A stretch of DNA of 40,856 nucleotides from IMG/VR virus record IMGVR_UViG_3300005732_000058, positions 1 through 40,856 of that record, one strand, 5' to 3'. The translations under genes and the position numbers were made by a program. A model generated the notes under the pieces. The model saw nothing but the letters and a program-made list of their open reading frames with translations, was not told the DNA's origin and did not search any database. Shown here in pieces: positions 1 to 40,856 of this stretch; positions within the stretch are counted from its first letter, which is position 1; each line of letters begins with the position of its first letter. Source of the stretch: a virus. Its lineage: Duplodnaviria; Caudoviricetes.

Positions 1-68
1 ACTGAGCGAGCGCGGCATTGATCTGGCGATGTCCAATGACGACATCATGGCCGCGCTCAATGGTGGGC
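1..68. repeat. 68-bp terminal direct repeat (copy 1), most likely the assembly overlap of a circular or permuted genome
   Basis: Bases 1-68 are identical to 40789-40856, and the reading frame continues across the junction (ATG 40817 = ATG 29). Confidence 0.95.
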
Positions 69-3000
69 AGCCTCAAAAGACCGATCCTGTTTCATTTGCT
101 AAATCTATTGCGGCCAAAATTAGAGAGCTTCTTCCTGAGGTCGCGGCAAGCATAAAAGTCAATGTTGTGCCTGTTGGCGATGCTGCCCTGAGACGGAATA
201 AGGTCGCGGAAGAGTCAGGAGTAGATATTCATGCTGATGCCACAAGTTCAGGCGGGACAATAACGATCACGCCAGAATCAAGTGTTGAGCTTATCGTGCA
301 TGAGTTCCGGCACGTTCTTGATATTGTTGTTGTAGGGTTGGGCCTGCGTGATGCTGTCACAAGTCTTGAAAGCACAAATGAGGGTCGTGACCGCCTGCAC
401 GGTTATCTAAACGCTGCGCGTGATGCGGGTCATATTCCTAAAGACGTTTACTTTGCAAATGAAGCTGAAATCGCAAATGGGCTTGTCGCTGCCTTCTGGT
501 CTGATCCCGATGGAATGGAGGCGGCGATACCTGAGATTTTTGACATCCTATTTGACAGCCGGATAAGTGAATTTTCATTTTTGAATGATATGCTTGCCGC
601 CCTGCAGGATGATCCCGATGGTCAGCAATATGATCAGGAAGGCCGCCTGCTGACTGACACGCCGGAATTCCGCGCGTGGTTTGGCGATAGCAAGGTGGTC
701 GATGAGAAGGGTGATCCGTTGACGATGTACCACGGGACGCCAGATGCTAGCTTTGACGCATTTAGTGAGGACCAGTTTTTTACGGAGGACCGTGAGTATG
801 CTTCGCGTTTTTTAAGTTCGTCCACGGCGTCATCCAGCATGTATGGTGTGCGAGACGGGGACGCTCAAGTTATTGAGGTTTACATAAAATCTGAAAACCC
901 TTTTGACACAAGAAGCCCTGACCATGCTCTGGTACTAAAAAATCAATTTTCGGGTGTTTTTGGTGAGGGCGTTTTGACAGAAAACGGCTTGCCTGATTGG
1001 GTTGAGGGGCGCGATATTGCGGAGTTTTTGCGCGAAAATGTTGCCGAACTGGGGTTTGACTCCGTAATCGTAGATGAGGGTTCCGATAACGCTGGTCAGC
1101 GCCCGCCTGCTTACATTGTTTTTTCTCCTGAGCAAATCAAATCCATCAACAACCGCGGCACCTTCGACGCCAACGATCCGCGCATTATGTTTCAGGACCA
1201 AGCGCACCCGTTTGAAGGCGTGACGCGCGATGAGTTTTTAGGTTCACCAAAGATCACATCAAATGCAAATGCATCCAGCTTGGTCCCTAAGGTTCTGGCT
1301 TCGGTCGAACCTGTTGAGGCGGTGCCTTTCAATGCTGGCGTCGGTCTCACTGCCAAGTATCACGAAAATGGCGCTGCTGTTCTCAAGGGCGACAAGGTGA
1401 TTGCCTCGTATAATCTTGGTGACACGCTGGTTGTTGCGAAAGGCCAGCGCCGCCAAGGAATTGCTGAGGAATTGGTTTATCAGTGGCGGATGAGGTTTCC
1501 GAATTCTCAACCTGCGACAAGCCGGACAAAGGCGTCCCAAAAACTACAGGAAAAGGTGTGGGATCGGATTCAGTCTGAAATTCAATCTGGCGAAACATCT
1601 TACAATCAGCAAAAGCGCGGCTCGATCGTTCTGCCGCGCGGCGGACTAACCGAGGGCCAGACCGTCATCAACCTGTTTGAAAGCGCTGATCTGTCCACGT
1701 TCCTGCACGAAAGCGGTCACTTTTTCCTTGAGGCGTTCACGGCGATGGCCACATCTGAGGGTGCGCCGCAGGCGATGGCCGATGATCTGGCTGTGATCCA
1801 CAAATTCCTTGAGGTCGAGGATGGTGCATCACTGACCCGCGATCAGCACGAAACATGGGCGCGCGGATTTGAGGCATACCTGATGGAAGGCAAGGCACCG
1901 TCGCTGGGGCTGGCCAGCGCCTTTGCGCGGTTCAAGGCATGGCTGACCCGCATTTACCGCACCGTGCGCAACCTCGATGTGAAGCTGACGCCAGAGGTTC
2001 GCGAGGTCATGGATCGCATGCTGGCCACGGATGAGGAAATCGCGGCAATGCGCGATGATCTGGCCATGCGCCCGCTGTTCGCTGATGCTGCGCCTGCGGG
2101 GATGTCGGATGCTGACTTCGCCACATATCAGCGGATGGCCCAGCGCAGCGCTGACCAAGCTGAGGCATCGCTTATGAAACGCACCATGGAAAAGGTGCGG
2201 CGCGAAACCCAGAAATGGTTCAAGGACGAAAAGAAAGCTGTGCGGGCAGAGGTTGAGGCCCGCGCCAACAAGATGCCTGTCTATCGCCTGACCGAAATGC
2301 TGGCCAACCAGCGATGGATCGGTGACGCGGATCGCGAGGTGCCTAACATTCAGATGGATCGTGATGCGCTGGTTGATCAATTCGGCGAGGGTGTCATTGC
2401 AGAGCTGGGGCGCACGCGCCTAGGCGGCAAGCGCGCGATCTATGCCAAGGGCGGTGATCGCCCTGAGATAGTCGCTGAGATGTTCGGCTTTTCCAATGTG
2501 GTCGAGATGGTCGAGGCGCTGCAGAACGCGGGCAAGCGCAAGGATTACATCGACGGCGAAACTGACCGCATCATGGTCGAGCGCCACGGTGATCCGCTCA
2601 ATGATGGATCGATTGAGGAGGCCGCGGCGCTGGCCGTTCATTCTGAGCAGCAAGCCGCCATGGTCACGACTGAGGCCCGCGCGATCGCCAAGCGCTTGGG
2701 GCTGCCGACGCGCAATATCAAGGCCAAGGAATACCGAGCCCGCGCCAAGGCCATGCTGGGGCGCATGAGCGTGCGTGAGGCGTCACGGTCGGCGTCGTTT
2801 CTGCAGGCTGAGCGTCGGGCGGCCAAAGCTGCTGAGCGTGCGTTTGCGCGGGTTGCGCGCGGCGGCACGCGGGCTGAGGCGTCACTGGCTGAGGCGATGC
2901 AGGCGAAAGAGCAGCAAATCCTCAATCATTTCCTCTATCAGGAGGCCCGTGATTTTGAGGCGCGCCTGCAGCGCGCGCGCGAAAAGTTCCGCTCATTCCA

Positions 3001-5413
3001 AAAGGAAAGCGTCCGCAAGGCTGTGGGCCTGGCTTATCTCGATGAGGCAACGGGTGAGATGGTGCCCGGCCATATTGAGCAGATCGATGCCCTTTTGGAG
3101 CGCTATGACTTCCGCTCACGCAGCGACAAGCAGGTGCGCAACGCCGAGTCCCTGATGGCCTATGTGCAGCGCATGACCGATGAGGGCCGTGCGGATGAGC
3201 TGGCGATTGATCCCGTCATTTTGCGCGATGCTGAGCGCCGCCATTACACGCGCCTGTCGGTTGATGAGTTCGCTGGGCTTGTGGACACTGTGGCCAACAT
3301 CGAACACATGGGGCGGCGTCGGGCCCGGCTGGTGGATCGTAAGCGCAAGCGTGATCTGAATGAGGTCGCGTCCCGCGTTTCTGGCCTGGTGCGTGATCGG
3401 TTTGGTCGCGGCAAATCAGACGCCCAAAGCGGCGCGGTGCGTAACTTCTTCAACCTGCTCATGCGTGTGGACACTGTGGCCATCGACATCGACAAGGCAG
3501 AGATGGGCGATTTCTATGACGCCATCAAGCGCCCGATTGATGAGGGCTCTGCGGCTGAGCAGCAAATGAATGCCGAGTCTGCTCTTGAGATTGAGGCGCT
3601 GTTTGATGTCTACACATCCAAGGAAAAGCGCGACTTCAACACGGCTCGCGTGATCCCTGGCGCAAACGGCCAACCTTGGTCAAAGCAGCAAATCCTTTCA
3701 GTGGCGCTGAACACAGGCAACAAGGAAAACCTGCAGCGCGTCCTAGATCGTCGCGTTGATCGTTCTGTGCGCCTGACCCAGCCCCAACTTGATGCCTTGC
3801 TCGACACGTTGGATAAGCGCGATTGGGATTTCGTCCAAAGCATCTGGGATTTCGTGGGCAAGTTCCAAAGGGAATCCTTTGATGTCGCTGAACGGATGAC
3901 CGGCGTGCGACCCAAGGCGGTTGAGGCCGCGTCGGTGCAAACCAAGTTCGGCACATATCGCGGCGGGTATTATCCGATCGGCTATGACCCAACCAAGTCG
4001 AAAGCGGCACAGCTCGACGCTGAGGGCGCGCTGGATCAGTTTCTGTCTGCGGGGCGGGGTAACGCGGCCAAGGTCGCTGATGGCTTCACCAAGGGCCGCG
4101 CGCAAAGCGGCGGCGGGCGCGCCGTCCTCTATGATTTTTCTGTGATGATGCGCCATTCTGTTGATGCCGCGCGCCTGATCGCGCTGGCTGAGCCTGTGTA
4201 TAATGCTCAGCGCATCCTCAACCACCGATCGGTGTCTGATGCCTTCCGCGATGGCGGCCAGGCCAACCTGCTTTCTCAGCTCAATCTGTTCCTGCAGGAC
4301 ATTGCGTCGGGCCCAGTTTATAGCTCTGACCCGATCAATGCAGCCTCGCGCTTTATGAAGAACAACTTCACCTTGTCGCGGTTGGCCTTCAATCTCAAGA
4401 CAGTGGCGCTGCAGGTGACTGGCTTGGGGCAGTCGGCGGCGGTGATCGGAAAACGCAACCTGATGCGCGGCTTTAATGTCTATCGCCAAAACCCAGCACG
4501 GGTTGCTCAAGATGTTCTGGCTAAATCGGCATTCATGGCTGAGCGCCAGACCACGTTTCAGAAAGATGTCTTTGATGCGCACAATGAGGCGCGGGTGTCG
4601 TCTCCGATCGCCTCGCGCTGGCGCGCTGGGACTGAGGTTCTGTCAAAAGCGGGCTTTGCGCCTATGGTCAAAACGCAGTTCTACGTGGTGGACCTGCCCA
4701 CGTGGCTGGGCGCATTTGAGGCTGAAATCCGTCGCAACGGTGGCGATGAGGCCAAGGCCATTCACTTTGCGGATCGGATGGTCGATCGCTCTCAGGGTGG
4801 CGGGTTCATGGCTGATCGCAACGCGCTTGAGCGCGGCACTGTATCCCGCAACGTGCGCCAATCAGATTTCGTGCGATTGTGGACCACGCTGGGCGGATAC
4901 ATGGTGACAAAGCTGAACCGCGGATACGTGACAACACGCCAAGGCGCGCGAGCCATTGGGCAGGCTAATGGCCCGGTCGAAAAGGTCGCTCAGGCCGCGA
5001 ACATGGCCGCTGATCTGACTCTGTTATTTGTGTTTGAGGCGGCTCTGATGGGGCTGGCTTATTCCTTGCTGACTGACGATGAGGATGAGGAGGATGTTGC
5101 CGCGTTCATCGCCAAGGAAACGGCTGCGGCGGCGCTGGGTGGCATCCCGTTTGTTCGCGAGTCTTTCAGCGCATTCAATGGATACGGTGCTGGCGGCGTT
5201 CTTAGCTCGGCGCTTGAAATTCCTGCAGATGTTTGGACGCAAATTTCGCAGGGCGAGAATGACAAGGCGTTTCGGCGCGCGGTCGGAGACGCCATCGGTT
5301 TCGGAACCGGATTGCCGACAACGCAGTCAATTCGTGTTATTGAGGAAATCATAGCCGGTGATGACGGCTCAATCGCAGAGGCCGCTTTTGGCCGAAACCC
5401 GCTGGCTGATTAG
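29..5413 (+). CDS. C-terminal ~1,794 aa of a giant polyvalent internal virion/ejection protein (true start ~38411, across the origin)
   Basis: In frame with the open frame 38411-40856. Contains HEFRH (299-313) and HESGH (1706-1720) zincin motifs, an ART-PolyVal-like segment (FRAWFGDSKVVD...YHGT...FFT...VYIKSENPFD) and a GNAT-like segment (VAKGQRRQGIAEELV). It is the last ejection gene before the tail fibre. Confidence 0.85.
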   Translation: MSNDDIMAALNGGQPQKTDPVSFAKSIAAKIRELLPEVAASIKVNVVPVGDAALRRNKVAEESGVDIHADATSSGGTITITPESSVELIVHEFRHVLDIVVVGLGLRDAVTSLESTNEGRDRLHGYLNAARDAGHIPKDVYFANEAEIANGLVAAFWSDPDGMEAAIPEIFDILFDSRISEFSFLNDMLAALQDDPDGQQYDQEGRLLTDTPEFRAWFGDSKVVDEKGDPLTMYHGTPDASFDAFSEDQFFTEDREYASRFLSSSTASSSMYGVRDGDAQVIEVYIKSENPFDTRSPDHALVLKNQFSGVFGEGVLTENGLPDWVEGRDIAEFLRENVAELGFDSVIVDEGSDNAGQRPPAYIVFSPEQIKSINNRGTFDANDPRIMFQDQAHPFEGVTRDEFLGSPKITSNANASSLVPKVLASVEPVEAVPFNAGVGLTAKYHENGAAVLKGDKVIASYNLGDTLVVAKGQRRQGIAEELVYQWRMRFPNSQPATSRTKASQKLQEKVWDRIQSEIQSGETSYNQQKRGSIVLPRGGLTEGQTVINLFESADLSTFLHESGHFFLEAFTAMATSEGAPQAMADDLAVIHKFLEVEDGASLTRDQHETWARGFEAYLMEGKAPSLGLASAFARFKAWLTRIYRTVRNLDVKLTPEVREVMDRMLATDEEIAAMRDDLAMRPLFADAAPAGMSDADFATYQRMAQRSADQAEASLMKRTMEKVRRETQKWFKDEKKAVRAEVEARANKMPVYRLTEMLANQRWIGDADREVPNIQMDRDALVDQFGEGVIAELGRTRLGGKRAIYAKGGDRPEIVAEMFGFSNVVEMVEALQNAGKRKDYIDGETDRIMVERHGDPLNDGSIEEAAALAVHSEQQAAMVTTEARAIAKRLGLPTRNIKAKEYRARAKAMLGRMSVREASRSASFLQAERRAAKAAERAFARVARGGTRAEASLAEAMQAKEQQILNHFLYQEARDFEARLQRAREKFRSFQKESVRKAVGLAYLDEATGEMVPGHIEQIDALLERYDFRSRSDKQVRNAESLMAYVQRMTDEGRADELAIDPVILRDAERRHYTRLSVDEFAGLVDTVANIEHMGRRRARLVDRKRKRDLNEVASRVSGLVRDRFGRGKSDAQSGAVRNFFNLLMRVDTVAIDIDKAEMGDFYDAIKRPIDEGSAAEQQMNAESALEIEALFDVYTSKEKRDFNTARVIPGANGQPWSKQQILSVALNTGNKENLQRVLDRRVDRSVRLTQPQLDALLDTLDKRDWDFVQSIWDFVGKFQRESFDVAERMTGVRPKAVEAASVQTKFGTYRGGYYPIGYDPTKSKAAQLDAEGALDQFLSAGRGNAAKVADGFTKGRAQSGGGRAVLYDFSVMMRHSVDAARLIALAEPVYNAQRILNHRSVSDAFRDGGQANLLSQLNLFLQDIASGPVYSSDPINAASRFMKNNFTLSRLAFNLKTVALQVTGLGQSAAVIGKRNLMRGFNVYRQNPARVAQDVLAKSAFMAERQTTFQKDVFDAHNEARVSSPIASRWRAGTEVLSKAGFAPMVKTQFYVVDLPTWLGAFEAEIRRNGGDEAKAIHFADRMVDRSQGGGFMADRNALERGTVSRNVRQSDFVRLWTTLGGYMVTKLNRGYVTTRQGARAIGQANGPVEKVAQAANMAADLTLLFVFEAALMGLAYSLLTDDEDEEDVAAFIAKETAAAALGGIPFVRESFSAFNGYGAGGVLSSALEIPADVWTQISQGENDKAFRRAVGDAIGFGTGLPTTQSIRVIEEIIAGDDGSIAEAAFGRNPLAD

Positions 5414-12673: not shown

Positions 12674-12945
12674 TGGAAGCGGATTTGAAATGGTTGGTGG
12701 GGATCGCAGTATCTTTGTCTGTGTCAATTATTATGGCGTTCATTGGTGGGTTTAGGAACTTGGCAAGCCGCATATCTACATCCAATCGTGAACTCCACCA
12801 GCGCGTTGATGACGTGAAAGAAAAGTATGTTCGTCGCGATGACCTGGACGGGCACCTGCAAAGGATTGACGAAAATGTCAGGGACATCAGGGATGAAATG
12901 CGGGAGAACCATAGGCAGCTCCTAGAGGCCGTTCGTAAAGATTAA
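12673..12945 (+). CDS. Small membrane-anchored coiled-coil protein of the lysis cassette
   Basis: N-terminal TM (WLVGIAVSLSVSIIMAFIGG), YVRRDDL motif and coiled coil; TAATG coupling to the holin. Confidence 0.65.
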   Translation: MEADLKWLVGIAVSLSVSIIMAFIGGFRNLASRISTSNRELHQRVDDVKEKYVRRDDLDGHLQRIDENVRDIRDEMRENHRQLLEAVRKD

Positions 12946-12970
12946 AAAAGCCCCGGTTGATCCGGGGCTT
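12944..12970 (-). terminator. Rho-independent terminator of the leftward operon (possibly bidirectional)
   Basis: Hairpin AAGCCCCGG-TTGAT-CCGGGGCTT (12948-12970) with an A6 tract at 12944-12949, between convergent genes. Confidence 0.85.
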
Positions 12971-13026
12971 AGTTTGTCAGCGATGCGCTTTGTCACAGGC
13001 AAGACGCGCGAGCGCTGACTGCTCGA

Positions 13027-14340: not shown

Positions 14341-14364
14341 GTCTTGCCCTCAGTTGTGGGTCGC

Positions 14365-14946: not shown

Positions 14947-15752
14947 GTGTCTTGCCCTTGCTGTTGTGCGGCGACTTCGCGTGCCGCGGTTGAAAGTTTG
15001 TCATGGTGTCCGTGAGTGATCAGCCATCCTTTTTGCACGTTGGTCAGGCCATTGAGCCATCGCGCATATTCTTTCGGCCCATTTACTGCCGCGACTTGTC
15101 CAGCGTCGATCAGCTCTTGGTTTTCGCCGGGCCCCGCAAGCTGAGCGCGCGGCTGAGATTTGCCGTCGCGATCCAAGCCCTTCTGCACGATGCCAAAAGC
15201 CGCTGCGAGGGAATAGCGCTGGCCGTATGTTGTGGATGACCCAAGCGCCTGGGCTGCGCTCTTGGCCCCGCCCGCATCGGGCGGCACAGGCATGCGACCA
15301 CGCTCCTCGCGCCAAGTATACTCACTGTCCATGTAGGTGATGACGGTCCAGACGGTGACGCCGCCCTTGCCGCCATCGATTTGGTCGCTGTCATGGGTCA
15401 CGGTGAGGCCAAGCGGATTGATCACGTCATCGACAATCGCGCGCAAGTCCTCGTATTTTTTGAACCATCCGATGAACCGGCCATTGTGTTCAATCTTGTC
15501 GTCTTTGGTGATGATCGGCATTTTTTGGCATGCCTGAGCAAACGCACGATCAAAGCGATCCTTGGCCGCTCGATCGATCATCTTTTCCTGCAACTCGACC
15601 AGGTGCCCAATCTTGGCGGCATCAACGCTGGGGTCTTTGGCCATCTCGATCATCGACGCCCACATGTCGCTAACAGACATGCCGTCTGATTTCGCTGGTG
15701 CTGAATTGTTTTGAGGTTCTGCCGTTGCTGGCAGGTTCGTTTCGTCTGTCAT
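14943..15752 (-). CDS. ERF-family single-strand annealing protein
   Basis: ERF motif AQALGSSTTYGQRYSLAAAFGI; lies downstream of a RecE-like nuclease. Confidence 0.85.
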   Translation of the reverse strand: MTDETNLPATAEPQNNSAPAKSDGMSVSDMWASMIEMAKDPSVDAAKIGHLVELQEKMIDRAAKDRFDRAFAQACQKMPIITKDDKIEHNGRFIGWFKKYEDLRAIVDDVINPLGLTVTHDSDQIDGGKGGVTVWTVITYMDSEYTWREERGRMPVPPDAGGAKSAAQALGSSTTYGQRYSLAAAFGIVQKGLDRDGKSQPRAQLAGPGENQELIDAGQVAAVNGPKEYARWLNGLTNVQKGWLITHGHHDKLSTAAREVAAQQQGQDT

Positions 15753-15776
15753 GTCTTGCCCTTTCGTGATGACCTG

Positions 15777-17477: not shown

Positions 17478-17500
17478 CGTCTTGCCCTTTGATGTTTCTG

Positions 17501-17555
17501 TTGACCTGTTCGGAATACTGCGTTAAACCAGCGCTGTCAACGTTAAAATAACGCA
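17501..17555. promoter_or_regulatory. Overlapping divergent promoters with two operator-like palindromes
   Basis: Rightward TTGACC(17501)-N17-TAAACC; leftward TTGACA(17540-17535)-N17-TATTCC; operators TGCGTTA-AAC-CAGCGCT (17519-17535) and AACGTTA-AAA-TAACGCA (17539-17555). Confidence 0.7.
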
Positions 17556-17564
17556 GGAGATGAC

Positions 17565-17717
17565 ATGGCGAAAACATCGGGAATGTCCATCAACGTGACA
17601 GAGGAGGAGCGGGCGCTGGTTGCTGAGGCTGAAAAGCTGACGGGGCTGAGCCGCAAGGCTCTTATCATGTCGCTGGTGCGCGAAAAGCTGATCGCGCTCA
17701 AGGGGCAGGATGGCTGA
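17565..17717 (+). CDS. Ribbon-helix-helix (Arc/CopG-like) regulator, 50 aa; below the ORF-track cutoff
   Basis: MAKTSGMSINVTEEERALVAEAEKLTGLSRKALIMSLVREKLIALKGQDG fits strand-helix-G.S-helix; RBS AGGAG; overlaps the start of rusA. Confidence 0.75.
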   Translation: MAKTSGMSINVTEEERALVAEAEKLTGLSRKALIMSLVREKLIALKGQDG

Positions 17718-18144
17718 TCGCGTTTACCGCTTGCGCCTATCGACGCCGCCGCCCAGCGTAAATGCTATGTGGCGCGCCGTGGTGCGCGGCAAAAATGCGG
17801 TCAATATTCTATCCAAGGATGGACGCGCGTGGAAAGAGATGGCTGAGCTTGAACTGATGTCCCAGCAAGGTCTCGGCTCTGATCCTCGATATTGGCGCGC
17901 TGACATCCTCATTCCAGGCAAAGGCACTCGTGCTGACCTGGATAACTACCTCAAAGGAATTCTTGACGCGCTCGGCGCGGCGGGAAAGTCGCCAGATGAC
18001 CGATACTTGGTCGATCTGCGCATTCGTTTTCACTCAGGCGATCATGTCGCCATTGCTCTCAAACAGGAGGACCTATCCACATGGGCAAAAATCCGAAACG
18101 CATCGAAATCACTGATCCTGAAACTGGCGAAGTTTTCGAGCTGA
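17710..18144 (+). CDS. rusA: RusA-family Holliday junction resolvase
   Basis: PPSVN, DLDNYLKGILDAL, DDRYLV. Confidence 0.85.
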   Translation: MADRVYRLRLSTPPPSVNAMWRAVVRGKNAVNILSKDGRAWKEMAELELMSQQGLGSDPRYWRADILIPGKGTRADLDNYLKGILDALGAAGKSPDDRYLVDLRIRFHSGDHVAIALKQEDLSTWAKIRNASKSLILKLAKFSS

Positions 18145-19184
18145 ACGCATCCAGCTTGGTGTCTGATACCATCGGCGTTCTGATGTCATGGCGGCGCAAC
18201 GTCATTCAATCCATGGTCTGGGAGCAGCTCAGCGAGGAGCAACAGCAAGAAGCGATCGGCAACGCCGAGTCTCTTGCGACCGATCTGGTCACAAGCCTTG
18301 TCGAGATTATCGCGACCGGCGGCAATGACGTGATCCACGCGTTGCTCGACAACTTCAAGATCAAGGATGGGACCGTGACCGTTACTGCCAAGGGCATTGC
18401 GGATGACGCCGCGCTGCTGGCGCTCAACTCTGTGGGCAAGAAAGCTCTCAAGATCGTGGTTGCTGATGCTGAGCAGTTTGATCAGACGGGCGATCGCCCT
18501 GAGGCAACGCCAGATCAGCCATCCATGGACTTGGATGAGGATGAAGGTGACGGAATGTCGGATGAGGAGATTGATGACATCGCCTCTGATATGGACGCCG
18601 ATCTTGGCGACATCGAGGAGCCCGATGACCTGCATGACGGCGATAGCAACGTGCCGGTCAGTGACCCTGTTTCGGATGAGCAGGTTGAGGGTTATCACGC
18701 CCGCATGCAAGGCCAGCACAGTCAGCGCAACCCATACGACATGGACACACCTGCCCGCGAGGAATGGTATCTGGGCTGGAAGCGCGCGGATGACGATGAT
18801 GTCGCACCCGATGTTGAGCCATGGCCGCCAGAGGATGACGGCAAATCAGATGGCGAGACTAAAAATGTCGATACGGAAACCTCGCCTGCCGATACAGAGG
18901 CGGAAATCCCAGATATGCCGCCGCGCGAGGCTGGCCAGCAAGCACGGGTCAAAGGCGATGGTCCCGACAGCAACCCATATGACGGCGGCACCGATGAGCA
19001 TGCAGCCTGGGCTGAGGGCTACACATCCGCCGATGCTGAAATCCAAACCCTGATCGATGCTGGCAAAAAGGCAGGGCTCGACGGCGCGCCGAAAAAAGAC
19101 TGCCCCTGGAAGAAAGGGACGGATGGCGAGCGCTTTTGGCTGCAGGGTTATGAGCGGGGCAAGGCTGAGCGCGATCAGGGTTGA
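18081..19184 (+). CDS. Acidic protein with three C-terminal RMF-like repeats
   Basis: Strong RBS AGGAGG; three G..A...G.....(N/C)P(Y/W).......W..G(W/Y) units. Confidence 0.75.
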   Translation: MGKNPKRIEITDPETGEVFELNASSLVSDTIGVLMSWRRNVIQSMVWEQLSEEQQQEAIGNAESLATDLVTSLVEIIATGGNDVIHALLDNFKIKDGTVTVTAKGIADDAALLALNSVGKKALKIVVADAEQFDQTGDRPEATPDQPSMDLDEDEGDGMSDEEIDDIASDMDADLGDIEEPDDLHDGDSNVPVSDPVSDEQVEGYHARMQGQHSQRNPYDMDTPAREEWYLGWKRADDDDVAPDVEPWPPEDDGKSDGETKNVDTETSPADTEAEIPDMPPREAGQQARVKGDGPDSNPYDGGTDEHAAWAEGYTSADAEIQTLIDAGKKAGLDGAPKKDCPWKKGTDGERFWLQGYERGKAERDQG

Positions 19185-19253
19185 CCTCAGCGCTGCCGCG
19201 CGGCCATAACAGGGCTGGGGCGCACGTCTTGCCCAAGATAGCCCTTCTGTTGG

Positions 19254-19289
19254 ACCCCGCATCGGTAAAACGGTGCGGGGTTTTCTCTT
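19254..19289 (+). terminator. Rho-independent terminator
   Basis: ACCCCGCATCG-GTAAAA-CGGTGCGGGGT followed by TTTCTCTT. Confidence 0.8.
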
Positions 19290-19316: not shown

Positions 19317-19341
19317 AAATTAACAGATAGGAGGGCAGGGC

Positions 19342-19536: not shown

Positions 19537-20500
19537 CGGTCGGTATCAGGGCAACAAAGGGCTGGAATACTACAAAGCTTATCCTCGCGACTTTTTTGAG
19601 GGAACGCTAGGCATGCCCGGCCAGCTTCGCGGTTTCTACCGCATGGCGCTTGATCTGATCTACATGCACGATGGCTTTTTGCTGAACGACTGGGGGCACA
19701 TTGCGGGGCTCACAGGATACGGGAAAACGCAGTGCAAACGCATGATGTTGCAGCTTGTCGATATGGGGAAAATAGAGGTTTCGGGAGAAAACGACGAGTT
19801 TTTTACGCAAAAACGAGCGAAAAACGAGCTAAAAGACAGCAGAAAATTTCAGGAAAACCAGTCAAAAAAAGCGGCCAAGAGATGGAAAAACAATGACTTA
19901 CCAGATGCCGCGGATGATGCCGAGCCGATGCCACCACAAGACCACAAGACCACAAGACATAAGAGTCCTTCGGACTCTGGCGCGCCCAATTCCATGCCAC
20001 TCTTTGGGGGGCAGGCCAAATCAAAGCCCAAGCCGCCTGATCGGTTCGAGGAATTTTGGAACACATACCCTCATCGGGGCGGGGCAAAAAAAGGCAAGGC
20101 TGCAGCCCGCAAAAAATGGGACGCAGCACTTAAGCGCAAGGTCGATCCAAGCATCATCATTGCTGGGGCTGTGGATTTTCAGCGTGATCGAAAGGTGGTT
20201 GATGGCTATGCGCCTGATCCCGCAAGATGGCTGCACAACGAGATGTGGCTAGACGAAATTGAAGAAGTGAAAGGGCAAGGCAATGGGAACAGATTTGAAA
20301 ACGGTGGATCAGGTGGCGGCGCTGCCGGAACACGTAGACCCACAAACGGTGGCCACCATGACGCACTCTTGGCCGGATTTGGCCAAGCGGCACTTAACGT
20401 CGAAAGAGGAACGCGATCTGACGGCTTTGGTCATTCAGAAGATTTCCACGCCAGCCACGCCGCGGGCGATCGCGGCCAAGGTGGTGCCGATCCTGAGTGA
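19529..20500 (+). CDS. Replication initiator, DUF1376/YdaU-type (lambda O analogue)
   Basis: YYKAYPRDFFEGT..M....RGFYRMALDLIY N-terminus; FEEFWNTYP...GK..A.KKW and PDPARWLHNEMW C-terminal domain; internal iterons. Confidence 0.8.
   Translation: MADGRYQGNKGLEYYKAYPRDFFEGTLGMPGQLRGFYRMALDLIYMHDGFLLNDWGHIAGLTGYGKTQCKRMMLQLVDMGKIEVSGENDEFFTQKRAKNELKDSRKFQENQSKKAAKRWKNNDLPDAADDAEPMPPQDHKTTRHKSPSDSGAPNSMPLFGGQAKSKPKPPDRFEEFWNTYPHRGGAKKGKAAARKKWDAALKRKVDPSIIIAGAVDFQRDRKVVDGYAPDPARWLHNEMWLDEIEEVKGQGNGNRFENGGSGGGAAGTRRPTNGGHHDALLAGFGQAALNVERGTRSDGFGHSEDFHASHAAGDRGQGGADPE
19934..19964 (+). repeat. Tandem CCACAAGA x3 plus CATAAGA: candidate iterons/replication origin
   Basis: Perfect 8-bp units at 19934, 19942 and 19950 inside the initiator gene, downstream of an A-tract-rich stretch (~19770-19900). 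Confidence 0.65.
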
Positions 20501-21829: not shown

Positions 21830-22140
21830 GAATACCTGAGAGAGGTTCCCGTGCTGGTCCAGATCAGGCCAGCGATCCCAGATGCACCGATTGGAGAGGC
21901 CGCGCGTGGCCAGCGTCCGATCAGCGGGGCCAGACTGAGCGGGATAGGTCTGGTCGCTGCGACACGAAATCCAGGAATGTTGGGGCGGCACCCGGTCGCA
22001 CGAAACATCGTCTATGGAGAAAAGGCCGGGGCGTTTATGGTCAATTTTTGAACGCGATGCGGGGCAGTGCCGCACAAATCAAAGGGACGGCGGCGGCCAC
22101 AAAGCGCTGACAGCCCGGAAAGACGGGCAACCAACACAGA
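21830..22140 (+). ncRNA. Candidate structured RNA (run of hairpins ending in GCCCG-GAAAGA-CGGGC)
   Basis: Consecutive stems GCTGGTC/GGCCAGC, GATTGGA/TCCGATC with inner GGCCGC/GTGGCC, GGCCAGAC/GTCTGGTC, and a hairpin at 22113-22128; no convincing ORF. Confidence 0.45.
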
Positions 22141-22152
22141 TGAGGGCAAGAC

Positions 22153-22257: not shown

Positions 22258-22392
22258 ATGTGTGACGAATACGACGATTTCCCCACCGACGAGGATATGA
22301 ACGCGCTGTTTTGGTTCGGTCTGTTTCTCTTGTTTGTGATCATTTTGCTGGGCGTCGGGGCAGCTTGGGCCGTGCTGGCGTGGGTGCTATGA
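22258..22392 (+). CDS. 44-aa single-TM protein with acidic N-terminus
   Basis: MCDEYDDFPTDEDMNALFWFGLFLLFVIILLGVGAAWAVLAWVL; tightly packed, ATGA overlap with the next gene. Confidence 0.55.
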   Translation: MCDEYDDFPTDEDMNALFWFGLFLLFVIILLGVGAAWAVLAWVL

Positions 22393-24911: not shown

Positions 24912-25202
24912 ATGCAAGACGAAGTGACGCAATACAATTTCAGCGATGCGCTGACCAAAATCAAACAAGGGCACCGCATGCAGCGTGCGGGTTGGAACGG
25001 CAAAGGGATGTTTGTCTTTCTGGTCGCTGGGTCCGTTTTCACGGTCAATCGCGAGCCGCTGTTGTCTATTCTGGGCGAGGGCGCTGAGGTGACATACCAT
25101 CCTCACATCGATATGCGCACGGCTGACGGCTCTATTGTGCCGTGGCTGGCATCTCAGACAGACATCATGGCTGAGGACTGGCAGGTTGTCTCGCCAAGTT
25201 GA
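24912..25202 (+). CDS. DUF2829-family protein
   Basis: FSDAL..IKQG.RMQRAGWNGKGMFVFL...PWLASQTDIMAEDW. Confidence 0.85.
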   Translation: MQDEVTQYNFSDALTKIKQGHRMQRAGWNGKGMFVFLVAGSVFTVNREPLLSILGEGAEVTYHPHIDMRTADGSIVPWLASQTDIMAEDWQVVSPS

Positions 25203-36298: not shown

Positions 36299-38421
36299 TG
36301 GTTGCGATCGTCCGAAAATATCAGCGCACAGAAGTCGAACAAGCGGTCAATCCCGTCACAACAAAAGCACCCCAAACCAGCCTTGGCGCTTTGGGTGAGG
36401 GCCTGTCTGATGTTGGCGACATGTTCTCGGATTGGCAGGATGAGGTGGATACCGCTGACGCCAAAGCTGCCGACGCCGCCTATTCTGATTTGATCCGGCA
36501 AGAGCTTTACGGCGATCAGACTGGCTACATGTATTCGCAAGGTGGCGATGCGATGAACCGTCGCGGCTCTGTTTCTGAACGGATAGAGGCTGAGCAAGCG
36601 CGCATCCTTGATGAAATGAGCCCAGGCGCTCGCGCACGTGCGCAGTCTGCTATGGAGGCTCGCCGCCAGCGGGCTCTTTTGTCGATCGACCAACATGCCA
36701 ATGGGCAGCGGCGCACATATCTCGATACGGCAGCTGAGGCTCGCGTGACTGCGACCATCAATGATGCGGTCTACAACCCTGATCTGGTGCTGCAATCGCT
36801 CAACACCAACCGCACTGAAATCTTGGACATGGCCGATCGCAACGGCTGGTCGCCAGAGGTGACTGATTTGAAACTGCGCGAATCCGAAACCAAGATTTAC
36901 GGCGGTGTGGTTGAGCGCCTTGCCGTTGCAGACCCGATCCGCGCTCTCGAATATTTGCGCGAGAACCGCGACAATATGCTGGGTGCAGAGGTGGCGCGCC
37001 TTGAGTCCAGATTGGTCCCGATGGCGCGAGAATATCGGGGGCGTGCGGCGGGTGCGGCGGCGGCCACTGGCGCGATTGACCCTCGCACCTTTGATTGGTC
37101 CAAATACTCGACGGGCGGGGCGGCTACGCGAGCTGACAGTTTCACCGGCCTTAATCCAGAGTTTGCATCTCGCGTGGCTAACATGCTTGTGGCCGCTGAG
37201 GCAGATGGCATCGACCTCAAGGTCACATCGGCCTATCGTTCAAATGAGTTGCAAGCTGCGCTGTTTGCACGCGCGGTCGAGCGATATGGCAGTGAGGCGG
37301 CGGCGCGAAAGTGGGTCGCACCTCCTGGCCGATCTCAGCACAACACGGGCATGGCCGTTGATTTCGCGAGCGCGAGCGGTGGGCTGTTGCGTGATGCGGG
37401 CAGCGCTGAAGCCAAATGGCTGCAGGCAAATGCTGAGCGCTTCGGCCTTCATTTGCCGATGTCTTGGGAGCCTTGGCAGGTTGAGATGTCTGGATCGCGT
37501 GGTGGCCCGGCCATCGAGCCAACGGCCATTAGCGGCGGCGGCATCGAAAGCCTTCTGGCCATCGCTGATCCCGATGAGCGGGCTGCGGCAATCAATGAGT
37601 ATAACCTGCGCACGGGCATTCAGGCCAAGCAAGCTGAGGCGGGCCGCCAGGCGGCTGAGGACGCAGCGTTTCAGATGATCGAGGCGGGCGGCAACATCAA
37701 TGACCTGCCGCTTGAGTATCGCCAGCACATCGGACGTGAGGCGATGAATAGCCTGCGCATCTATCAGGAGCGGGTGGCCAGCGGGCAGCCCGTTCTGACT
37801 AACGATGCGTTTTATGTGCAGCTTGCCGACATGATGTCTCAGTCGCCTGAGGAGTTCATGCGCACTGATCCAATGACATGGCGCGACAAGCTGGATGACG
37901 GTGATTTCCAGTATTTCGTCAAGCAGCGCGCTGATCTGATCGCCGGTCGCCGCGAGGCCGGTGCTGATGGGCCGTCCATTTCTTCGCTGCGCACGGCATC
38001 CTCAACGGCGCTCAAAGCGGCTGGCGTCGATGATGATCCTCAGGTGGTCGCAACATTTGAGCGTGACCTGTTGCGGTGGTCTGCGGCATTTGCTGAGCGC
38101 GAGGGCCGTAACCCCAGCGCGTTAGAGACCAACACGCGGATCAATGAGATGCTGGTGCCCGTAGTCATTGACCCCAAGGGATTGGGTAACAAGCAAGACG
38201 GCTTTGCCTTCCAGATGGATTACGATGGTCGGTCATATGACCCGAATGATGACGTGACCCCCGCGATGTTGCGGGATGGTGCGCTGACCATCAATGATAT
38301 TTCTGTGTCTAATGGCATGATGGAAACCTTTGCCCAAGGCTTTGAAATTCGGTTTGGCCGCGCGCCAACCGTTCAAGAGTTGATTGAGGGCATGATTGCA
38401 TCGGGGCTTTATGATGAATGA
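36298..38421 (+). CDS. Internal virion/ejection protein (gp15-like) with embedded M15 (VanY-like) peptidase domain
   Basis: Helical protein containing SAYRS..LQ..LF, VAPPGRSQHNTGMAVD, W...NA.RFGL, EPWQVE (~37140-37490). Confidence 0.82.
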   Translation: MVAIVRKYQRTEVEQAVNPVTTKAPQTSLGALGEGLSDVGDMFSDWQDEVDTADAKAADAAYSDLIRQELYGDQTGYMYSQGGDAMNRRGSVSERIEAEQARILDEMSPGARARAQSAMEARRQRALLSIDQHANGQRRTYLDTAAEARVTATINDAVYNPDLVLQSLNTNRTEILDMADRNGWSPEVTDLKLRESETKIYGGVVERLAVADPIRALEYLRENRDNMLGAEVARLESRLVPMAREYRGRAAGAAAATGAIDPRTFDWSKYSTGGAATRADSFTGLNPEFASRVANMLVAAEADGIDLKVTSAYRSNELQAALFARAVERYGSEAAARKWVAPPGRSQHNTGMAVDFASASGGLLRDAGSAEAKWLQANAERFGLHLPMSWEPWQVEMSGSRGGPAIEPTAISGGGIESLLAIADPDERAAAINEYNLRTGIQAKQAEAGRQAAEDAAFQMIEAGGNINDLPLEYRQHIGREAMNSLRIYQERVASGQPVLTNDAFYVQLADMMSQSPEEFMRTDPMTWRDKLDDGDFQYFVKQRADLIAGRREAGADGPSISSLRTASSTALKAAGVDDDPQVVATFERDLLRWSAAFAEREGRNPSALETNTRINEMLVPVVIDPKGLGNKQDGFAFQMDYDGRSYDPNDDVTPAMLRDGALTINDISVSNGMMETFAQGFEIRFGRAPTVQELIEGMIASGLYDE

Positions 38422-40856
38422 TTTGGTGAATGGATCACTGTTTGACCGTCACTTTGATGACCTTGAGCGCCGCAATGCTGCACGTCAAAGCACTGCTTTA
38501 ATTCTTGGCACTGACACACCGGATCGGGCGGCTGAGGGCGTCCAGCTTGGCTCTGAGCTGAGTGTGCCGCCTCAGGCCGTCATGGGCGCGCCTGAGGTGT
38601 TTCGAGGCCAGGCGGAAACCTTGCGGGCAACGACTGCCTTGCGCAGCGCGCCAAACCTTTCTGACTGGCTGGGTGATCCGATCAATGGCGCTCTGAGCAA
38701 GGATGATCTGGACAACCTGACATGGTTTGAGCGCAACTTTGGCGCGGGTGGCCGCGCCATCGGTCGCGGTGTGCGCCGCCTTTCTGCGGTTCCTGATTAC
38801 TTCGGGGCGCTGGCGGATTCGACGCGCGCCGGTGATGTCGGCAAAACCTATGATGAGATTTTGGCTGAGGAGGTGGCGCGCTGGGGCGAGGGTGTAACCT
38901 TTGATATGTTGCCTGCGCATTCCCGCATGAATGCTATTCAGGTTGCTCAGCTTCGATATGACGCCATTGCGGGTCAAGGTGAGGCAGAGCAGATTGAATA
39001 CATCCGGCGCGGCGCTGAGCGATTGGCGAACGCTCAGGAAATCCTGCGTATCACACAAAACATCCCGATGTCTGAAACGGCCACGATGTTCCGCGATGGT
39101 CGGTTGGCCAACGCTGAAAATACGCTAATGGGCACGCTTAGTGCCTTTGTCGATGATCCGATTGGTGGGGCGGCGTTCATTGCTGAAACAGCGGCGGAAA
39201 CGCTTCCGGTTCTGGCGGGTGCGACAGCAACCACGGCGGCCACTCGATCCCCAGCCGCTGGCGTGACCGTCATGGCCGGTGGCTCATTCCTTATGGAAAA
39301 CACCAACTCGGCCATGCAATTCCTGCAGGAGCGCGGCGTGGATATGTCTACGCCAGAGGCTGCCGCGCTGGTGCTACAAAACCGTGAGTTGATGGCCGAG
39401 GCCCAAAAGCTGGGTGTTGAGCGTGGCTTGATCATTGCCATGTTCGATGCAGTTTCTGGCGGCGTGGCTGGTAGGGCGCTTCTTGAAAATCCAGCGGGCG
39501 ACATGGTTGTGCAGGGTATTGCTCAAGCCGCGTTGGGCGCTGGTGGTGAGGCAACGGCGCAGCTTGCGACTGAGGGCGAAATTGACTGGCGCGAGGTCGT
39601 GATTGAGGGCTTGGCCGAATTGGCCACGGCACCGATTGAGGTTGTTGGCGTTGGTGGGCGCGGCATGCTGGACATGCTGTCACGGTTTTCGCGTAGCGGC
39701 GAAACATCGGCGGCCATTGCCGAGATTGATGTGGTTGCTGCGGAATCCAAGGTGCGGGCTCGGTCGGTCGATAAGTTTCTTGAAGCCCTGCAGGCTTCAA
39801 ACATGGATGACAAGGCGCTCTATGTCTCGGCTGAGGGGCTGCAAGAGTATTTTCAGGCCAAGGACACGCCGCTGAATGATGAGACACTGCGCGCATGGGG
39901 CGTTGACCCGTCTGACTTCGCGGAAAAGCTGACCAGCGGTGGCGATGTGACGGTGCCCGTTGCCAACTATGCAGCGCGGATAAGCGGCACCGATGATGCC
40001 ATGTGGTTCCGCGAAAACTCTGTGCTGGACCCTGGCGAAATGTCAGTGGCAGAGGCCGCTGAATTCAATGATCGTGTGCGCGACATCATGGCAGAGGAGT
40101 TTGATAAACGTGAGGCGCAGCTTGAAGATGACCGCCAGTCGCGCGCGTCGGACGTGCAGATTTATGATCAGGTGTTTTCGCAATTGCGGGCGGCGGGGCG
40201 CTCGCCGGATGTAGCACAACAAGAGGCAACCGTGTGGGCATCGTTCTGGCGGGCGATGAGCGAGCGCTATGGCGAGGACGCGCTTGACCTTGCCCGATCT
40301 ATGGGTGTGGCCATTCAGGGGCCTCAGACGCCAGAGGTGGCGCGTCGGCGCGATCAACTGGACATCATGCTGAACACGCTGCGCTCAAAAGGTGACAAGG
40401 CGCTGGCTCCGCGCGGCGCTGGTATTCTCGACTTTGTGCGCGCTCAGGGCGGTGTCCGCGATCGAGGCGGCGATGTCGAGGCGCTGGATGCTCCAAAGGG
40501 TGTAATCGCTGAAAGCCGGTCTCAAATCCTTGAGCGCGAAAGCCAGCCGTCATTGGGCGGCGGTGCCGACTTTAATGGGCGCGGAATGGGTTTGGATGAT
40601 ATTGGCCGCGCGATGATCGAGGCTGGTTATTTTCCTGAGTATATGGGCGGCGCTGACATCCAAGCTGACGGCACTGTGGTGGATGAGGCTGCCATTGCGC
40701 TTGAGGCAATTTCTGAGGCCGTGGCTGGGCGTGATCGCTTCCTTGATGGTGAGGGGCCGGATCAGGACTTGGTGGATTTTGCTGAGCAACTGAGCGAGCG
40801 CGGCATTGATCTGGCGATGTCCAATGACGACATCATGGCCGCGCTCAATGGTGGGC
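38411..40856 (+). CDS. N-terminal part of the giant ejection protein; continues through the origin to 5413 (~2,596 aa total)
   Basis: Read by hand: ATG 38411/38414 overlaps the upstream stop, there is no in-frame stop to the window end, and the frame matches ORF 29-5413. Absent from the ORF track. Confidence 0.88.
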   Translation, partial: MMNDLVNGSLFDRHFDDLERRNAARQSTALILGTDTPDRAAEGVQLGSELSVPPQAVMGAPEVFRGQAETLRATTALRSAPNLSDWLGDPINGALSKDDLDNLTWFERNFGAGGRAIGRGVRRLSAVPDYFGALADSTRAGDVGKTYDEILAEEVARWGEGVTFDMLPAHSRMNAIQVAQLRYDAIAGQGEAEQIEYIRRGAERLANAQEILRITQNIPMSETATMFRDGRLANAENTLMGTLSAFVDDPIGGAAFIAETAAETLPVLAGATATTAATRSPAAGVTVMAGGSFLMENTNSAMQFLQERGVDMSTPEAAALVLQNRELMAEAQKLGVERGLIIAMFDAVSGGVAGRALLENPAGDMVVQGIAQAALGAGGEATAQLATEGEIDWREVVIEGLAELATAPIEVVGVGGRGMLDMLSRFSRSGETSAAIAEIDVVAAESKVRARSVDKFLEALQASNMDDKALYVSAEGLQEYFQAKDTPLNDETLRAWGVDPSDFAEKLTSGGDVTVPVANYAARISGTDDAMWFRENSVLDPGEMSVAEAAEFNDRVRDIMAEEFDKREAQLEDDRQSRASDVQIYDQVFSQLRAAGRSPDVAQQEATVWASFWRAMSERYGEDALDLARSMGVAIQGPQTPEVARRRDQLDIMLNTLRSKGDKALAPRGAGILDFVRAQGGVRDRGGDVEALDAPKGVIAESRSQILERESQPSLGGGADFNGRGMGLDDIGRAMIEAGYFPEYMGGADIQADGTVVDEAAIALEAISEAVAGRDRFLDGEGPDQDLVDFAEQLSERGIDLAMSNDDIMAALNGG
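40789..40856. repeat. 68-bp terminal direct repeat (copy 2)
   Basis: Identical to 1-68. Confidence 0.95.

Follow-up and report, generated by a model that had tools for sequence, protein, structure and literature searches.

The window, i.e. the whole stretch of 40,856 nt analysed here, is the complete record of an uncultured aquatic virus, with direct terminal repeats. Its capsid protein finds its best matches at 51-56% identity, epsilon15 among these, and no cultured close relative was found in the collections searched. PHROG and Pfam scans identified exonuclease VIII, ERF, a 3'-5' exonuclease and an ATPase in a leftward block, and a 50-aa protein, RusA, an RMF-repeat protein, a replication protein, a cold-shock protein and methyltransferases in a rightward early block. 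The same scans of 44 ORFs found no integrase or CI-like family, and to that extent the phage is one without CI, as the preliminary description had put it; however, the 50-aa protein at 17565 has a weak ribbon-helix-helix-type match (NikA-like, E 0.028) and may be a DNA-binding repressor. The RMF-repeat gene, our marker gene in the comparisons below, encodes 367 aa, and PF09397 is also present in some of its homologues. Lying directly upstream of the element studied here, this ribosome-modulation-factor-like product is a possible translation-acting phage protein. The promoter style, the best plasmid matches of the cold-shock protein (57-58%) and one relative that sits in a Rhizobiaceae-group bin hint weakly at an alphaproteobacterial host. 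Elsewhere in the window, a Tad2-like (Thoeris anti-defence 2) domain protein is encoded at 24912-25202 (+; Pfam E 8e-27), a very long reading frame (38414-40856 and 29-5413, +) appears to cross the join of the record, so that the 1794-aa ORF probably represents the final part of a larger virion protein. About 320 nt (21830-22150, +) that separate the cold-shock gene from gene 22153 carry no clear gene, are G+C-rich and contain hairpins, e.g. GCCCGGAAAGACGGGC, with no Rfam match; the relative found in run X1 differs in or skips part of this interval.

The stop codon of the marker gene ends at 19184 and the plus strand reads CACGTCTTGCCC at 19223-19234, as described before. We confirmed that CACGTCTTGCCC pairs at 11 of 12 positions with GGGCAAGACAUG at the starts of the ATPase (14340), ERF (15752) and 22153 genes and at 10 of 10 with GGGCAAGACG of gene 17477, and found a fifth exact leader, that of the 3'-5' exonuclease gene 14946, which the first reading had missed. 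Within this stretch, GUCUUGCCC (19226-34, +) is the exact complement of a tag, GGGCAAGAC, that occurs in seven exact copies in the window against 0.35 +/- 0.56 expected, a number reached by none of 100 shuffles. One copy lies within the capsid gene and one is the antisense copy at 19226-34; the remaining five precede genes 14340, 14946, 15752, 17477 and 22153, all in the sense orientation and 0-2 nt from the start codon. Near-match tags stand before 19342 and 20283, and the start of gene 20283 has the exact tag in L039, L041 and L047. Counting 20283, the tag is present at 6 of 22 early starts but at none of the 20 late ones (p 0.02); with the exact tag only, the early count is 5 of 22 (p 0.049). 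The predicted targets belong to both the leftward and the rightward early operons, with no late gene among them. The idea of a rightward transcript that silences the leftward genes is not supported in that form, since the leftward genes are no better as predicted targets than the rightward genes 19342, 20283 and 22153. The features are collected in Table 1.

Table 1. Predicted features of the sRNA unit and of the tagged leaders in the window.
Feature	Position	Strand	Remarks
Upstream (marker) gene	18081..19184	+	three RMF-like (PF04957) repeats
Predicted sigma70-type promoter	19181..19210	+	TTGACC-N18-CATAAC
Lock arm	19205..19221	+	only in read-through RNA of the upstream operon; predicted to bury the seeds
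Predicted ~70-nt sRNA	19217..19289	+	start predicted ~7 nt after the -10 box
Seed 1 GUCUUGCCC (19226-34) in apical stem GUCUU/AAGAU, GCCC loop, short form	19226..19239	+	
Seed 2/linker CCCUUCUGUUGGAC	19242..19255	+	complement of (C)AACAGA(A)AGGG, which precedes the tag in several leaders
Intrinsic terminator hairpin and U-tract	19254..19289	+	common to the sRNA and the upstream operon
Leader of first leftward gene 17477	17478..17505	-	GUCAACAGAAAC...GGGCAAGACG-AUG; best predicted target, rank 1/42, -18.1 kcal/mol
Tag before 22153, first small gene of a rightward block	22144..22152	+	rank 2/42; counterpart of the compensated L045 leader
Variant tag GGGCAGGGC with upstream AACAGA, before gene 19342	19333..19341	+	rank 3/42, -16.2 kcal/mol
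Tag before 3'-5' exonuclease gene 14946	14949..14957	-	rank 4/42
Variant tag GGGCAAGGC before gene 20283	20273..20281	+	rank 9/42
Tag before SMC/AAA-type ATPase gene 14340	14341..14349	-	rank 10/42
Tag before ERF annealing-protein gene 15752	15753..15761	-	exact tag, but rank 22/42, -7.1 kcal/mol

A second inverted copy occurs at 12998-13005. It lies behind the ATPase gene, where 12941-13019 (-) folds into a hairpin that carries CGUCUUGCCU at its tip and precedes a terminator, and a perfect TATAAT overlaps the stop codon. The arrangement resembles a paralogue of the sRNA, but we downgraded this copy as a second sRNA: its binding energies with the seven leaders are only -1.5 to -4.2 kcal/mol. 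It is absent in L041, L055, L050 and L056, and L059 has a hairpin similar to that of 12941-13019 with two mismatches.

Relatives were collected with an RMF-repeat protein profile, which gave 16 loci (15 distinct), and an exonuclease VIII scan, which added L056, so that 16 relatives were counted. The 3' end of the marker gene is visible in these 16, and the core seed was kept in nine and present as a variant in two (L045 and L053). The nine keepers (L039, L041, L044, L046, L047, L049, L050, L051 and L056) share GUCUUGCC, followed by a CUGUU/UUGUU linker and a terminator, while L052 is more divergent with the same promoter and L040 has no unit. L042, L043 and L054 carry an unrelated unit in the same place. 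These distant promoter-hairpin-terminator units (L043:4309-4418, L054:8975-9090 and L042:1944-2049) are unrelated in sequence; the L043 unit has weak matches, GGGACAA and GGGTTTC, before a few starts, and de novo seed/leader searches of the L042, L043 and L054 records gave no convincing target set. The seed is kept even between genomes whose marker proteins share only ~37-60% identity. In the core group, each of the longer contigs (L039/L055, L041, L046, L050 and L056) has at least three tagged leaders. In L041, the tag of the first leftward leader is lost. Part of AACAG in the first leftward leader overlaps the reverse complement of the -35 box of the opposite promoter, which could explain the conservation of AACAG. 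At L065:5019, L046:9005, L055:393 and L056:9414, the tagged leader is kept and the ORF behind it is replaced by unrelated genes, an arrangement that resembles a fixed expression cassette.

Wider searches added little to this set. DNA-pattern scans of viral contigs gave no new member, and 24 of 26 and 5 of 8 matches were discarded as chance for want of homologous genes. Neither the marker gene nor ERF retrieved anything in single-protein scans; the marker gene has no homologue in GenBank phages or plasmids and occurs in 2 of 401 genomes of one bacterial class, and the element gave two chance matches only in GenBank phages. A covariance model run over 37 sources returned the known members and a weak positional match in L042. 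Four 14-base element strings did not occur in six of the nine supplement files of a survey of phage structured RNAs (PMC10690425), and our literature search found no description of the element. Rfam gave no match over the window at E<=1; for a 200-nt region there were 21 weak matches, all below the gathering score and none of them C4.

The element appears to be a transcription unit of its own. In the window, the -35 box TTGACC (19181-86) overlaps the stop codon of the marker gene and is followed by an 18-nt spacer ending in GGC and the -10 box CATAAC (19205-10); the relatives share TTGAC, an 18-nt spacer ending in GG(C/G) and then (C/T)AT. Among the nine genomes with an 18-nt spacer, the near-copy L044 being left out, pairwise identity was 1.00 in the -35 box, 0.29 in the spacer and 0.87 in the first three bases of the -10 box. 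The -35 box lies anywhere from 17 nt inside the upstream gene (-17) to 33 nt past its stop (+33), indicating that the promoter position tracks the seed and not the TGA. In L056, ~3 kb separates the unit from the downstream gene, but its place is unchanged. The signature resembles the alphaproteobacterial consensus of S. meliloti, CTTGAC-N17-CTATAT (PMC2873474). A generic E. coli-type scanner listed neither the sRNA promoter nor its terminator, and both rest on the comparison of relatives. In the terminator, 6 of 13 consensus pairs are changed on both sides. The plus strand folds better than the minus strand in 13 of 14 members, and 13 of 14 contain 2-6 G-U pairs. The preliminary description had taken the RNA for a processed 3'-UTR of the rightward mRNA. 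This part is not supported as it stands: a promoter signature is conserved in the relatives while its spacer drifts, and the RNA is thus likely to be an independent sRNA of ~70 nt. As judged from sequence, it combines its apparent promoter with an intrinsic terminator, as trans-encoded base-pairing sRNAs do, and the conserved internal promoter signature would set it apart from the 3'-UTR-processed class, though its 5' end may yet be made by cleavage.

We then compared the predicted folds. Folded individually as the short RNA, most members form a basal RGGG/CCCU stem and an apical GUC(UU)/(AA)GAY stem with GCC in the loop. The apical stem is 78% paired, and its changes are one-sided only, none two-sided. 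RNAalifold on an automatic alignment gave no consensus fold for the 5' part. The interval 19185-19289 folds at -48.6 kcal/mol (z -2.7) with the AACAGGGCT/AGCCCTTCTGTT stem and the GGGC/GCCC pairing that the preliminary description had reported, the latter as a possible cover of the seed. Both are thus present in this fold, but neither seems to describe the active RNA: in all 11 genomes compared, the long stem is predicted to hide the seed, whereas in the short form the seed is exposed and GCCC is predicted to be open. The stem and the GGGC/GCCC pairing probably belong to the read-through form only, as their 5' arm overlaps the conserved -10 region. Opening the loop costs a mean of 0.15 kcal/mol in the short form vs 5.9 in the long form, which includes the promoter region, with the same direction in 11 of 11 genomes (L044, L052 and L043 left out). 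Pairing is better with a genome's own upstream segment than with swapped segments (p 0.0016), and the upstream arm locks the loop more than shuffled upstream sequences do (combined p 3e-7; 5 of 11 individually at p 0.01). These two results indicate that the long hairpin is also under selection. The window itself is a weak case of the lock, with p 0.10 against shuffled upstream sequence and an upstream arm ranking 11 of 13. On these folding models, the long hairpin is likely a seed-locked off state that would form only by read-through from the upstream operon.

Metatranscriptomes gave little direct evidence on the RNA. In one run, a relative at 90-95% was seen over 22 of 30 early-region bins, and runs X2-X4 cover only a short stretch of the cold-shock gene. 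A 260-nt contig of low depth from this relative (19008-19261), with no listed seed change and with strand and ends not given, spans the upstream sequence and the element; such contigs may come from DNA, and this one is thus no demonstration of the sRNA. If it does derive from RNA, it could speak for another reading, in which processing of the arc-like/rusA/rmf-repeat mRNA releases a longer 3'-end fragment as the active RNA, the long hairpin serves in processing or stability, and the leaders are repressed by pairing. The selection on the long hairpin, the presence in L049 and L056 of matched changes beside the seed, and the binding of the long form in the window, which is as good as that of the short form (-14.1 vs -13.1), would agree with such a fragment. 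However, the promoter signature is conserved at a fixed distance from the seed, and the long form, besides burying the loop in all 11 genomes, binds worse than the short one in 6 of 7, so we consider processing of a longer fragment unlikely.

We also examined the predicted pairing of the RNA with the leaders. Tagged leaders take ranks 1-4 among 42 starts, which were listed by hand, a few of them being off by some bases. The seven leaders bind at a mean of -13.6 vs -7.0 +/- 2.4 for shuffled RNAs, and none of 100 shuffled RNAs was as good. The duplex with the 17477 leader is bipartite, with seed 1 on GGGCAAGACG and the linker on GUCAACAGAA; in several leaders, AACAGA, a match to the second seed CCCUUCUGUU, stands directly upstream of the tag. 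These models describe an accessible, conserved seed that is complementary to RBS regions, as expected of trans-encoded sRNAs. Pairing in cis with the RBS of the next gene is unlikely as a sole role, given that the terminator intervenes and ~3 kb is inserted in L056. It might be that the RNA pairs with the leaders and that the outcome is cleavage, premature termination, or protection or activation of the message. There are precedents in PMC4825925, where P4 CI RNA acts via termination and IsrK activates its target, and several tags lie in short 5' leaders next to promoters. Against this, the predicted duplexes cover the SD-like AGGG and extend to the start codon, and no sequestering leader structure was seen in them for the RNA to open; an outcome other than repression therefore strikes us as distinctly unlikely.

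Compensatory changes between seed and leader were found in one of the relatives. In L045, CCUUUGCCC and CCCUUGAGUU replace GUCUUGCCC and CCCUUCUGUU, and the sole other copy of the seed complement in its 6 kb is the leader AACUCAAGGGCAAAGG of gene L045:5491. In this leader, 5 of 5 changed seed positions are compensated, across both seed sites, with Watson-Crick pairs restored (chance ~1e-3). The gene is flanked by the orthologues of 20283 and of the ORF near 22390, and its product is a small hydrophobic peptide similar to 22153 (24% identity). The sRNA of L045 itself binds this leader best of 14 (-18.9; next -15.0), and the leader is the best non-self site among 180 start windows. L045 groups among the common-seed genomes in a poorly resolved tree, and its 6 kb shows only one compensated target. 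Smaller signals came from other genomes, all with p values uncorrected for multiple tests or relatedness. The base next to the seed is C with a GACG leader (3 genomes) and U without (4 genomes), i.e. C/G vs U/A (p 0.03), and its states are scattered on the tree. L046 has UUCUUG with CAAGAA, and L056 has GCC-A with AAAGGC leaders. Leaders of the first leftward gene prefer their cognate RNA (p 0.03, 6 genomes); without L045, the test over all leaders was not significant (p 0.09) and the 22153-type leaders gave no cognate signal (p 0.78). Most of the covariation thus rests on one genome, L045. The covariation that the preliminary description had proposed to look for is there, and its central claim of a phage-encoded multi-target antisense RNA aimed at RBS/start regions gains support from it.

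These data also bear on two readings without RNA pairing. The tag might merely be a preferred Shine-Dalgarno sequence with its spacer, and the inverted copy a relic or a coincidence in a terminator region. The tag does contain an SD-like AGGG at the usual spacing, and the other inverted copy, at 12998, shows neither conservation nor good binding; however, the seed persists across the diverged marker proteins, L045 shows compensation and no late gene uses the tag, making such a coincidence highly improbable. Alternatively, the tag could be the binding site of a phage or host protein, on DNA or mRNA, with the inverted copy as another operator or a minus-strand decoy. A DNA site that is free of orientation would account for the inverted copy, and a weakly predicted ribbon-helix-helix protein is encoded nearby. 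Yet all five tags are in the sense orientation 0-2 nt from starts, the halves of the element are split by a 7-10 nt insert but overlap in the L045 leader, and the plus strand is the one that folds better, with G-U pairs, and that bears the U-tract. We regard a protein site as very unlikely. Taken together, it is very probable that the RNA base-pairs with the leaders, be it as the independent sRNA, as the longer fragment or with an outcome other than repression, and we consider it fairly probable that the unit 19181-19289 is an independent phage sRNA gene with its own promoter, repressing five to seven tagged early genes.

In the mechanism that we propose for this independent sRNA, the host sigma70 polymerase would start near 19217 and produce the short RNA, whose GCCC would stand in an open loop and make the first contact with GGGC of the tag. 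Pairing would then spread over GUCUU/AAGAC to the start codon, and the linker would grip AACAGA upstream. The paired sRNA would block the RBS, and translation of the tagged early genes would be repressed together. Read-through mRNA of the upstream operon would end at the same terminator with the seed folded away, so only the short form would be active. As the RNA builds up during infection, it would damp recombination, replication-linked and other early genes, acting as a timer. Another possible role, suggested by analogy with c4 of P1/P7, is immunity against a superinfecting sister phage, in allele-specific groups; a lysogeny switch is less likely because no integrase was found.

Between phages P1 and P7, the specificity of C4 RNA changed by compensatory bases. 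C4 regulates ant (PMC8201110), and CI of the satellite phage P4 pairs with seqA and seqC (PMC4825925). Like these, the present RNA would be short, encoded by the phage and trans-acting, with two pairing regions and with genes of the same phage as its targets; pairing at two sites with a phage leader is predicted in the 17477 duplex, and both sites are compensated in L045. P4 CI is processed from the transcript that it regulates and acts on one operon in the lysogen, whereas the present RNA appears to have its own promoter and terminator and to act on five to seven targets spread over three transcription units, and no integrase was found in its phage. From its promoter signature and the location of its targets in other units, it does not seem to be processed from a regulated transcript. 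IsrK of Gifsy-1 is similar in that one locus yields short and read-through forms with different folds; according to PMC4825925, its short active and long inactive isoforms have a common 5' end and the short one activates the long one, whereas the present forms would have a common 3' end and the short one is predicted to repress other mRNAs. VpdS, PreS, sar and OOP are likewise phage sRNAs that affect the life cycle, but sar and OOP are described as antisense to one phage mRNA each, the target of PreS is dnaN of the host and VpdS works via Hfq, and the accessible portion of a review (PMC12197685) mentions no sRNA targeting a shared tag built into many phage leaders.

A similar layout exists in Cluster K mycobacteriophages, where the SAS is a short asymmetric motif just before the starts of non-structural genes, with one copy in the opposite orientation in four genomes and a function given as unknown in 2011 and 2024 (PMC3203893, PMC11373665). 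The tag shares this arrangement of a repeated asymmetric motif at non-structural starts with a rare inverted copy, although the sequences are not homologous and the phages are unrelated. Anaya has 15 forward SAS and 1 inverted, and the inverted core lies in an intergenic predicted hairpin loop at L081:29871-29883 (JF704106 ~59870-59882). The inverted SAS of Cluster K1 (L081 and L084-L087) falls in a strong predicted hairpin loop within a structured intergenic region near the right genome end, and the inverted copy was in a predicted hairpin loop in four genomes checked. Among 11 genomes, the anti-SAS core was exact in four (Anaya, Angelica, Shaobing and Biglebops), near in Ekdilam and absent in six (Amgine, Yuna, ShedlockHolmes, Marshawn, TM4 and Pixie). 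Of these six, TM4 and Pixie do carry SAS, and the parallel is thus only partial. Alternatively, the CCUCC loop may be a generic anti-SD.

Known phage antisense RNAs mostly have one target, while here one RNA appears to address a whole early regulon, and the tag with its sRNA would amount to repressor-operator logic in RNA. Tentatively, and with more doubt than confidence, we suggest that a private tag in the early starts and one sRNA may form an RNA-addressed regulon with a read-through safety catch and allelic immunity groups, and that this may be a general strategy that explains some orphan motifs, e.g. the SAS of Cluster K1. The window and L045 are a natural allele pair, ready for a 2x2 test, and the compact seed/tag pair is a candidate orthogonal translational switch. 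The model is testable for the start-associated motifs of other phages, and for the SAS, a puzzle since 2011, a cultured phage would allow a direct test.
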